A DNA stretch of 64,000 bases from Escherichia coli. Lineage in GTDB: Bacteria; Pseudomonadota; Gammaproteobacteria; Enterobacterales; Enterobacteriaceae. The notes under the pieces were generated by a model. That model worked only from the letters and a program-made list of their open reading frames with translations, was not told where the DNA came from and made no database searches. How positions within the stretch are numbered: position 1 is the first letter of the stretch; each line of letters opens with the position of its first letter. This document shows positions 7,197 through 7,463 of this stretch, in pieces. The stretch lies in assembly GCF_009931435.1 (NCBI RefSeq), contig NZ_CP043414.1, one strand, 5' to 3'. Both the position numbers and the translations under genes were made by a program.

Positions 7197-7200
<4 letters not shown>

Positions 7201-7463
7201 AAGAGTTTTTATTTTTATTTCACTCCACGGTCGGCGTCATACAAACCCGCAAGGCGTTGCAGGCAGCGGGCATGACTTTTCGCGTCAGCGATATTCCCCG
7301 TGATTTACGCGGCGGCTGCGGGTTATGTATTTGGCTGACCTGTCTGCCCGGCGAGGAAATACAATGGGTGATCCCTGGGCAGACCGAAGCGATATATTGC
7401 CAGCAGGGCAGCAACTGGCAGTGCGTGGTGCATTACGACTCAGAAGCGTCAACCAGGCAATAA
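7197..7463 (+). CDS. hypothetical small protein (88 aa), translationally coupled to yjiL
   Basis: ATGA overlap with yjiL stop (7197-7200); Cys-containing 88-aa ORF; no family recognised from sequence alone. Confidence 0.4.

Follow-up and report, generated by a model that had tools for sequence, protein, structure and literature searches.

The double-cubane cluster protein DCCP and its partner DCCP-R have been described as a system of two components (Jeoung and Dobbek; PMC7317905, PMC9351452; 6ENO), and YjiM and YjiL are their homologues in Escherichia coli. [quoted passage not shown] According to a 2022 preprint by Haft, SelD is encoded in the assemblies that contain 955 of the 970 strong members of the double-cubane family; DUF3343 proteins are not mentioned there (bioRxiv 10.1101/2022.07.06.499078). 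In organisms that contain SelD, genes for the latter proteins, which are small and possess one highly conserved cysteine, adjoin those for YedF and Sec lyase, and the proteins have been proposed to be chaperones for selenium (Se) or sulfur (S) trafficking, a proposal from which the family takes its name (Lin et al. 2015, PMC5322559). The STRING table in that paper links DUF3343 in Slackia to a "CoA-substrate-specific enzyme activase" and a "2-hydroxyglutaryl-CoA dehydratase subunit", a link left undiscussed by its authors. Here we analyze ytiA, a DUF3343 gene that directly follows yjiM and yjiL in a 64,000-nucleotide stretch of E. coli DNA (assembly GCF_009931435.1, contig NZ_CP043414.1), referred to below as the window.

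The gene is an ATG-initiated frame of 88 codons and the third gene of a yjiM-yjiL-ytiA operon (Table 1). An earlier note made from the sequence had drawn attention to this frame and to the ATGA shared by its start and the yjiL stop, both of which can be read directly from the DNA, and had suggested that it could be unannotated. In fact, it is the already known and annotated E. coli gene ytiA, whose family has been named though it is uncharacterized. The counterpart in K-12 MG1655 is b4715 (YP_009518833.1, "uncharacterized protein YtiA", 85 amino acids), located between yjiL (b4334) and yjiK (b4333). The same 267-nucleotide coding sequence is annotated, in the same gene order as in the window, in a genome that is 99.6% identical over a 461-bp query, and the RefSeq labels under the megablast matches read "ytiA: DUF3343 domain-containing protein" or "putative Se/S carrier protein", in addition to yjiL. 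YtiA is a direct member of PF11823 (Se_S_carrier, formerly DUF3343), which it matches with an E value of 6.4e-13 and 48.4 bits versus a gathering cut-off of 25, residues 4-59 aligning with model positions 2-57 of 69. Like the other members, which are about 80-100 amino acids long, it is a stand-alone protein with a single highly conserved cysteine. No NCBIfam model matched YtiA, and sequence and profile searches of the PDB yielded no relative, the top hits being due to chance (LolB and DAF; best profile E value, 0.62). The note had named the neighbors correctly as YjiL and YjiM, as judged by family matches and RefSeq. YjiM matches PF06050 (E=3e-121), the NCBIfam equivalog NF040772 'double_cubane' (528.7 bits, cut-off 350), and the solved structure of DCCP from C. 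hydrogenoformans (PDB entry 6ENO, E=1e-74); YjiL, an acyl-CoA dehydratase activase-type ATPase, matches PF01869 (E=5e-77) and TIGR00241 (363.8 bits).

Table 1. Features of the yjiM-yjiL-ytiA operon and of the adjacent espX6 island in window coordinates, with the lengths of the yjiL/ytiA overlap in the species surveyed.
Feature	Position	Strand	Basis or remark
yjiM, double-cubane [8Fe-9S] cluster reductase (HGD-D family), operon gene 1	5272..6423	+	PF06050, NF040772, 6ENO; RefSeq coordinates taken over from genome locus L001
yjiL, ATP-dependent activator/reductase (BcrAD_BadFG family)	6433..7200	+	PF01869, TIGR00241, RefSeq; TGA stop at 7198-7200
ytiA, DUF3343 / putative Se/S carrier protein, 88 amino acids	7197..7463	+	Open reading frame, PF11823, RefSeq, homologues, AlphaFold2
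ATGA shared by yjiL stop and ytiA start	7197..7200	+	Read from sequence
Codons for C41-G-L-C44	7317..7328	+	C41 sole family-invariant cysteine (alignments A3, A4)
Divergent 3' segment of ytiA	7408..7440	+	DNA homology to island-free alleles ends at 7407
Tail codons EASTRQ and stop	7441..7463	+	Putatively island-derived, from alleles ending (A/S/T)PR-stop and the displaced remnant
espX6 island, 2.6 kb	7441..10026		G+C about 32%
espX6, 696-amino-acid pentapeptide-repeat protein	7771..9861	+	RefSeq name in O157:H7
Displaced ytiA end, GCC CCG CGT TAA (A-P-R-stop), then native ytiA-yjiK spacer	10027..10038	+	
Overlap of 4 nucleotides (NTGA)			14 of 19 gammaproteobacterial loci
Overlap of 1 nucleotide (TAATG or TGATG)			4 of 19 gammaproteobacterial loci
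Overlap of 11 nucleotides			1 of 19 gammaproteobacterial loci

Comparative data show that ytiA is a genuine gene that is conserved and subject to purifying selection. Of 5426 complete E. coli genomes, 5385 were hit in a megablast search with positions 7100-7560 of the window. At the protein level, 132 homologues were retrieved at E<=1e-3, almost every one of them with the PF11823 domain, and they come from Escherichia, Citrobacter, Klebsiella, Raoultella, Kosakonia, Phytobacter, and Atlantibacter. Pairwise ratios of non-synonymous to synonymous substitution (dN/dS, Nei-Gojobori) are 0.12-0.29 for ytiA and 0.06-0.17 for yjiL, with ytiA changing two to three times faster than yjiL at non-synonymous sites. 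The frame persists across genera from Escherichia to Aeromonas; the earlier note had named a lack of conservation in related genomes as the finding that would overturn its proposal, and this is not what is observed.

To describe the operon arrangement, one genome per species (GTDB) was scanned with a YjiM alignment and the best 80 loci were kept, 19 of them from gammaproteobacteria and 61 from Firmicutes. A DUF3343 frame lies directly 3' of yjiL in all 19 gammaproteobacterial species, comprising Escherichia, Superficieibacter, Citrobacter, Klebsiella, Trabulsiella, Kosakonia, Cedecea, Hafnia, Morganella, Aeromonas, and one metagenome-assembled genome. Thus, although DCCP and DCCP-R have been described as two components, a third, overlapping gene is present in every one of these species. 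Since its start overlaps the yjiL stop in each of the 19 species (Table 1), ribosomes that terminate on yjiL probably go on to translate ytiA, and the overlap suggests that the two genes are translationally coupled. Two metagenomic loci (L004 and L010) display the same three-gene order between unrelated flanking genes; their small proteins are 33% and 38% identical to YtiA, and their YjiM proteins are 81% and 73% identical to that of the window. Across the 19 species and these two loci, adjacency and co-orientation with yjiL are therefore conserved independently of the flanks. These comparisons support the suggestion in the earlier note that the frame encodes a small partner of the YjiL/YjiM pair. 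Three long database proteins (P0125, P0140, and P0145) that resembled YjiL-YtiA fusions of the Rosetta-stone type were rejected as products of frameshifted assemblies.

The cysteines of YtiA are C41 and C44, which form a CGLC motif, C49, C68, and C76. Paired cysteines had been noted previously, and the CGLC is indeed present at residues 41-44; the second proposed pair, C..Q.C, is not found in this literal form, as the sequence reads C68-QQGSNWQ-C76, a C-x7-C arrangement. When 33 divergent members of the family, drawn from 1.8 billion representative proteins that were scanned, are aligned, F8, P34, and C41 are the sole invariant residues, with G42 almost constant. The hallmark of the family is a loop of the form P-x-P-R-x-(L/I)-x-x-x-C-G that runs into strand 3; in YtiA, the loop leading up to this strand with C41 reads P-R-x-L-R-G-G-C-G. 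C41-G-L-C44 is kept in all 17 Enterobacteriaceae-type sequences (alignment A3), but outside the core Enterobacteriaceae C44 is lost, giving way to Ser in Hafnia (CGLS), Gly in Morganella (CGLG), and Ala in Aeromonas (CGLA), and it is also replaced in many distant members. C49, C68, and C76 vary across homologues, and the C-terminus is unconserved. Compared with the family at large, Enterobacteriaceae YtiA thus has an additional cysteine that completes a CxxC, as well as C-terminal cysteines that vary, and the conserved feature is one cysteine rather than a pair, in agreement with the description by Lin et al. (2015, PMC5322559). The conserved position encodes cysteine in all seven Firmicutes DUF3343 genes that were inspected for selenocysteine at this site. 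An AlphaFold2 model computed from an alignment of 17 sequences has a pLDDT of 88.2 and a pTM of 0.79; it predicts the element order beta-alpha-beta-beta-alpha-beta-beta and a ferredoxin-like fold, with pLDDT values below 50 at residues 85-88.

YtiA is not a member of the TusA, thioredoxin, or rhodanese families. It lacks the features expected of TusA/SirA proteins, giving no PF01206 hit at E<=0.1 and having no N-terminal CPxP motif, and the loss of C44 in relatives as well as the predicted ferredoxin-like fold set it apart from thioredoxin-like CxxC proteins. Carriers of the TusA/YedF type (PF01206; TIGR03527 'selenium metabolism protein YedF') are small and cysteine-based like YtiA, share yjiM/yjiL neighborhoods with DUF3343 in Firmicutes, and may act similarly. 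The ferredoxin-fold metallochaperones, such as the C-domain of UreE, CutA, and CopZ-like proteins, are 2-13% identical to YtiA and have no metal-binding motif in common with it, so that the likeness is confined to the level of a very common fold.

While other DUF3343 genes adjoin those for YedF, Sec-lyase-like proteins, and YedE, the YtiA branch is instead joined to the yjiM-yjiL operon. In Firmicutes, 12 of the 61 yjiM loci, about one in five, have Se/S-trafficking genes within 5 kb. Within this distance, selD occurs at 6 loci, yedF-type genes at 10, and DUF3343 at 7, the identities of the genes having been checked on examples. In Clostridium intestinale, the order is yjiM-yjiL-selD-yedF-DUF3343-yqeC-mocA; three Clostridium-type loci (L047, L050, and L083) read yqeC...yedF-selD-yjiM-yjiL-mocA-like; and a further one (L075) reads yedF-cysteine desulfurase-DUF3343-yjiM-yjiL. 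A Dorea locus contains a second double-cubane reductase (514.6 bits to NF040772), followed by DUF3343 and then an activase. Among more distant DUF3343 members, one (L007) follows a TusA-DsrE fusion, and another (L008) has YedE together with a class-V aminotransferase and a LysR regulator as neighbors. Both of the settings given by Lin et al. (2015, PMC5322559) were thus encountered again.

Several further features of these loci deserve mention in their own right. The occurrence of selD within 5 kb at 6 of 61 loci is far above expectation for a single-copy gene. In Clostridium and relatives (L033, L047, L050, L061, L083, and L090), YjiM/YjiL-type genes adjoin selD, yedF, yqeC, and a mocA/ygfJ-like cytidylyltransferase gene, which together make up the gene set of the selenium-dependent molybdenum hydroxylase trait. 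In an uncultured Dorea sp. (L069, positions 938-4620, minus strand), the operon consists of a desulfurase-like gene, a longer double-cubane paralogue of 453 amino acids, DUF3343, and an activase, and it is divergent from an adjoining YjiM-type gene that is itself without its own activase. The DUF3343 proteins of L069 and L077 display CC at the conserved site and end in ...DKYC or DRYC.

The best overall explanation of these observations, to which we assign a probability of about 0.55, is that ytiA, as the third gene of the operon, encodes a small cytosolic protein of the Se_S_carrier family that works with YjiL and YjiM by means of C41. More specifically, and more tentatively, at somewhat less than even odds, C41 could be a covalent carrier of persulfide or perselenide that exchanges sulfur or selenium with the YjiL/YjiM reductase. 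YtiA would then be made by translation coupled to that of YjiL, its C41 would take up sulfur or selenium as a persulfide or perselenide, and the loaded protein would hand this atom to, or receive it from, the ATP-driven YjiL/YjiM double-cubane reductase. The recurrence of selD, yedF, Sec-lyase-like, DUF3343, reductase, and activase genes in each other's neighborhood, together with the published co-occurrence with SelD, also brings up a stronger form of this idea, which we regard as rather unlikely: DUF3343 proteins, YtiA among them, might supply the link that is missing between selenium metabolism and the double-cubane reductases. In that case, YtiA would hold a persulfide, perselenide, or selenotrisulfide on its cysteine, and the ATP-driven YjiL/YjiM system would reduce it and so release sulfide or selenide, which might go to SelD, for example. 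As an alternative, YtiA might provide the bridging chalcogenide of the [8Fe-9S] cluster.

A number of observations weigh against a carrier working with YjiL and YjiM. The role of YtiA in sulfur or selenium transfer is drawn from guilt by association, and the searchable literature yielded no experiment with YtiA of E. coli or with any other DUF3343 protein; the name 'ytiA' leads to a Bacillus L31 paralogue rather than to the E. coli gene, and 'b4715' was found in none of the papers listed. In none of the 61 Firmicutes loci does DUF3343 directly follow yjiL, and in 54 of them it is absent within 5 kb; the reductase therefore does not generally need DUF3343 nearby. At the two metagenomic loci, moreover, the identities to YtiA are far below those to YjiM, and divergence this fast relative to YjiM and YjiL would be unusual for an obligatory stoichiometric subunit. 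Finally, the Shine-Dalgarno match of ytiA in E. coli is weak.

Two other roles for a protein of this kind have to be compared with that of a sulfur or selenium carrier. YtiA could be a dithiol/disulfide redox protein that accepts electrons from YjiL/YjiM or donates them to it through C41 and C44, or that is itself a protein disulfide substrate of this system, as the conservation of CGLC throughout the Enterobacteriaceae-type sequences and the low potential of its presumed reductase partner might lead one to think. However, Hafnia, Morganella, and Aeromonas have lost C44 while retaining both the operon and the overlap, many distant family members are without it as well, and the fold is predicted to be ferredoxin-like rather than thioredoxin-like, which makes such a role improbable. 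The same fold, as well as the size of the protein, would be compatible with a metal or Fe-S chaperone, or with a factor that assembles or stabilizes a cluster, either [8Fe-9S] in YjiM or [4Fe-4S] in YjiL; a cluster or metal might be bound at the interface of a YtiA dimer. Cysteine desulfurase neighbors are ambiguous here, serving Fe-S assembly and S/Se trafficking alike. Nonetheless, a single invariant cysteine provides too few ligands for a site in a monomer, most Firmicutes double-cubane operons have no DUF3343 gene nearby, and the recurrent neighbors are S/Se-trafficking genes rather than Fe-S assembly genes. We therefore consider a chaperone unlikely and favor a sulfur or selenium relay over it because of the one invariant cysteine and the S/Se-type neighbors.

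The existence and origin of the gene itself allow less latitude. A chance frame, or a decaying one conserved only through its overlap with the end of yjiL, might be suspected from the weak Shine-Dalgarno match, from the frameshifts in a few database members, and from the fact that no expression data turned up in the literature. This idea is refuted by the Pfam match above the gathering cut-off, the dN/dS values, the conservation of the frame across genera, and the confident fold model, and the overlap spans only 4 nucleotides; we give it hardly any weight. The earlier note had also considered that the frame might be part of the adjacent insertion, which is a low-G+C island whose only gene listed here encodes a protein named "espX6: T3SS effector pentapeptide repeat protein EspX6" by RefSeq in O157:H7. 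It is true that DNA homology to island-free E. coli alleles ends within ytiA and that the 88-amino-acid length occurs only with the island, the allele being found in about 637-639 genomes and the island in 637 of 5426, which is essentially equal. Yet the G+C content is about 52% up to the ytiA stop and drops to about 32% only thereafter (7550-9800), ytiA is by far the more widespread of the two, and a version of 85 amino acids is present in island-free genomes, including K-12, and in other genera. Furthermore, protein similarity between the alleles extends to residue 82, and the original end of the gene is found displaced to the far side of the island (Table 1). ytiA thus shows neither the low G+C content nor the restriction to island-bearing genomes that island membership would entail. 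An origin of the gene body in the island is refuted, and the chance that it holds in some form is minimal; no more than the final six codons and the stop can be credited to the island.

Comparison of the alleles allows the insertion to be described more closely. For most E. coli genomes, alignment with the window goes no farther than 7407, inside ytiA, and relative to the island-free alleles L002 and L014, the homology ends at this position and restarts at 10030, a 2.6-kb segment standing in place of 38 bp. Window positions 10030-10050 match L014 7175-7195 at 100% identity and L002 4347-4367 at 95%, stretches which correspond to the last two codons of the island-free ytiA, its stop, and the downstream spacer. 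Because similarity between the encoded proteins persists past 7407, through W74, C76, H79, and Y80, and the Escherichia marmotae allele ends in ...YDSTPR, we place the entry of the island between the codons for ...HYDS and those for (A)PR-stop, which implies that it supplied only the last six codons and the stop. This change of the tail to EASTRQ was probably harmless, since residues 85-88 have pLDDT values below 50 in the model and the C-terminus is unconserved. At the ends of the island, we detected no terminal inverted repeats or target-site duplication that were convincing above chance. The divergent segment on the ytiA side of the island is accompanied by a marked difference in synonymous divergence between E. 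coli alleles across codon 48, with a dS of 0.17 in the N-terminal half of ytiA versus 1.13 in the C-terminal half, and by a difference between the flanking genes: compared with L002, a genome whose gene order is of the K-12 type, yjiL is about 96% identical and yjiK downstream of the island about 81%. This pattern suggests that the right-hand haplotype came from a divergent donor by recombination, with a crossover near 7407. Genome H55, which retains only the left edge of the island, was rejected as an example of an empty site, as it reflects an IS1-associated deletion.

In E. coli SWYHX138.33gt (L093, 2793-3490), IS1B lies just 3' of an 88-amino-acid-type ytiA, espX6, yjiK, and yjiJ are absent, and iatD is truncated, a state that resembles an IS1-associated deletion of the island and its neighbors. 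The espX6 gene itself is repetitive. Positions 9237-9396 contain about five perfect copies of the in-frame 9-nucleotide unit AACATCTGC, which encodes SAT repeats, followed by degenerate units of 9, 18, and 27 nucleotides encoding (K/E)IP(G/A)xP, and two 24-nucleotide repeats are located close to the 3' end (9686-9768). BLAST matches of these regions to other genomes are split into 2-4 pieces, which suggests variation in copy number. Upstream of the operon, the mechanical open reading frame of yjiN (DUF445; 3744-5156, plus strand) starts from TTG and comprises 470 amino acids, versus 426 amino acids (1281 nucleotides) in RefSeq; the 44 extra upstream codons are probably not translated. A scan of positions 5000-10300 with Rfam revealed no RNA family at E<=0.1, and promoter and terminator predictions in 5000-7900 were as numerous as expected from shuffled sequence.

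For E. coli, these results indicate that the effector island of O157-type strains went into the last codons of ytiA, where it altered only an unstructured tail. For the wider family, they correct the view of YjiM and YjiL as a two-gene unit; to judge from the genomes surveyed, the unit in Gammaproteobacteria consistently consists of three genes, the third encoding a probably co-translated single-cysteine protein. The recurrence of DUF3343, selD, yedF, and Sec-lyase-like genes near the YjiM-type reductases of Firmicutes offers a testable lead to the role of double-cubane enzymes, and the same lead bears on how selenium or sulfur passes between proteins. If the proposed link is true, it would name a physiological substrate or a maturation route for these enzymes.
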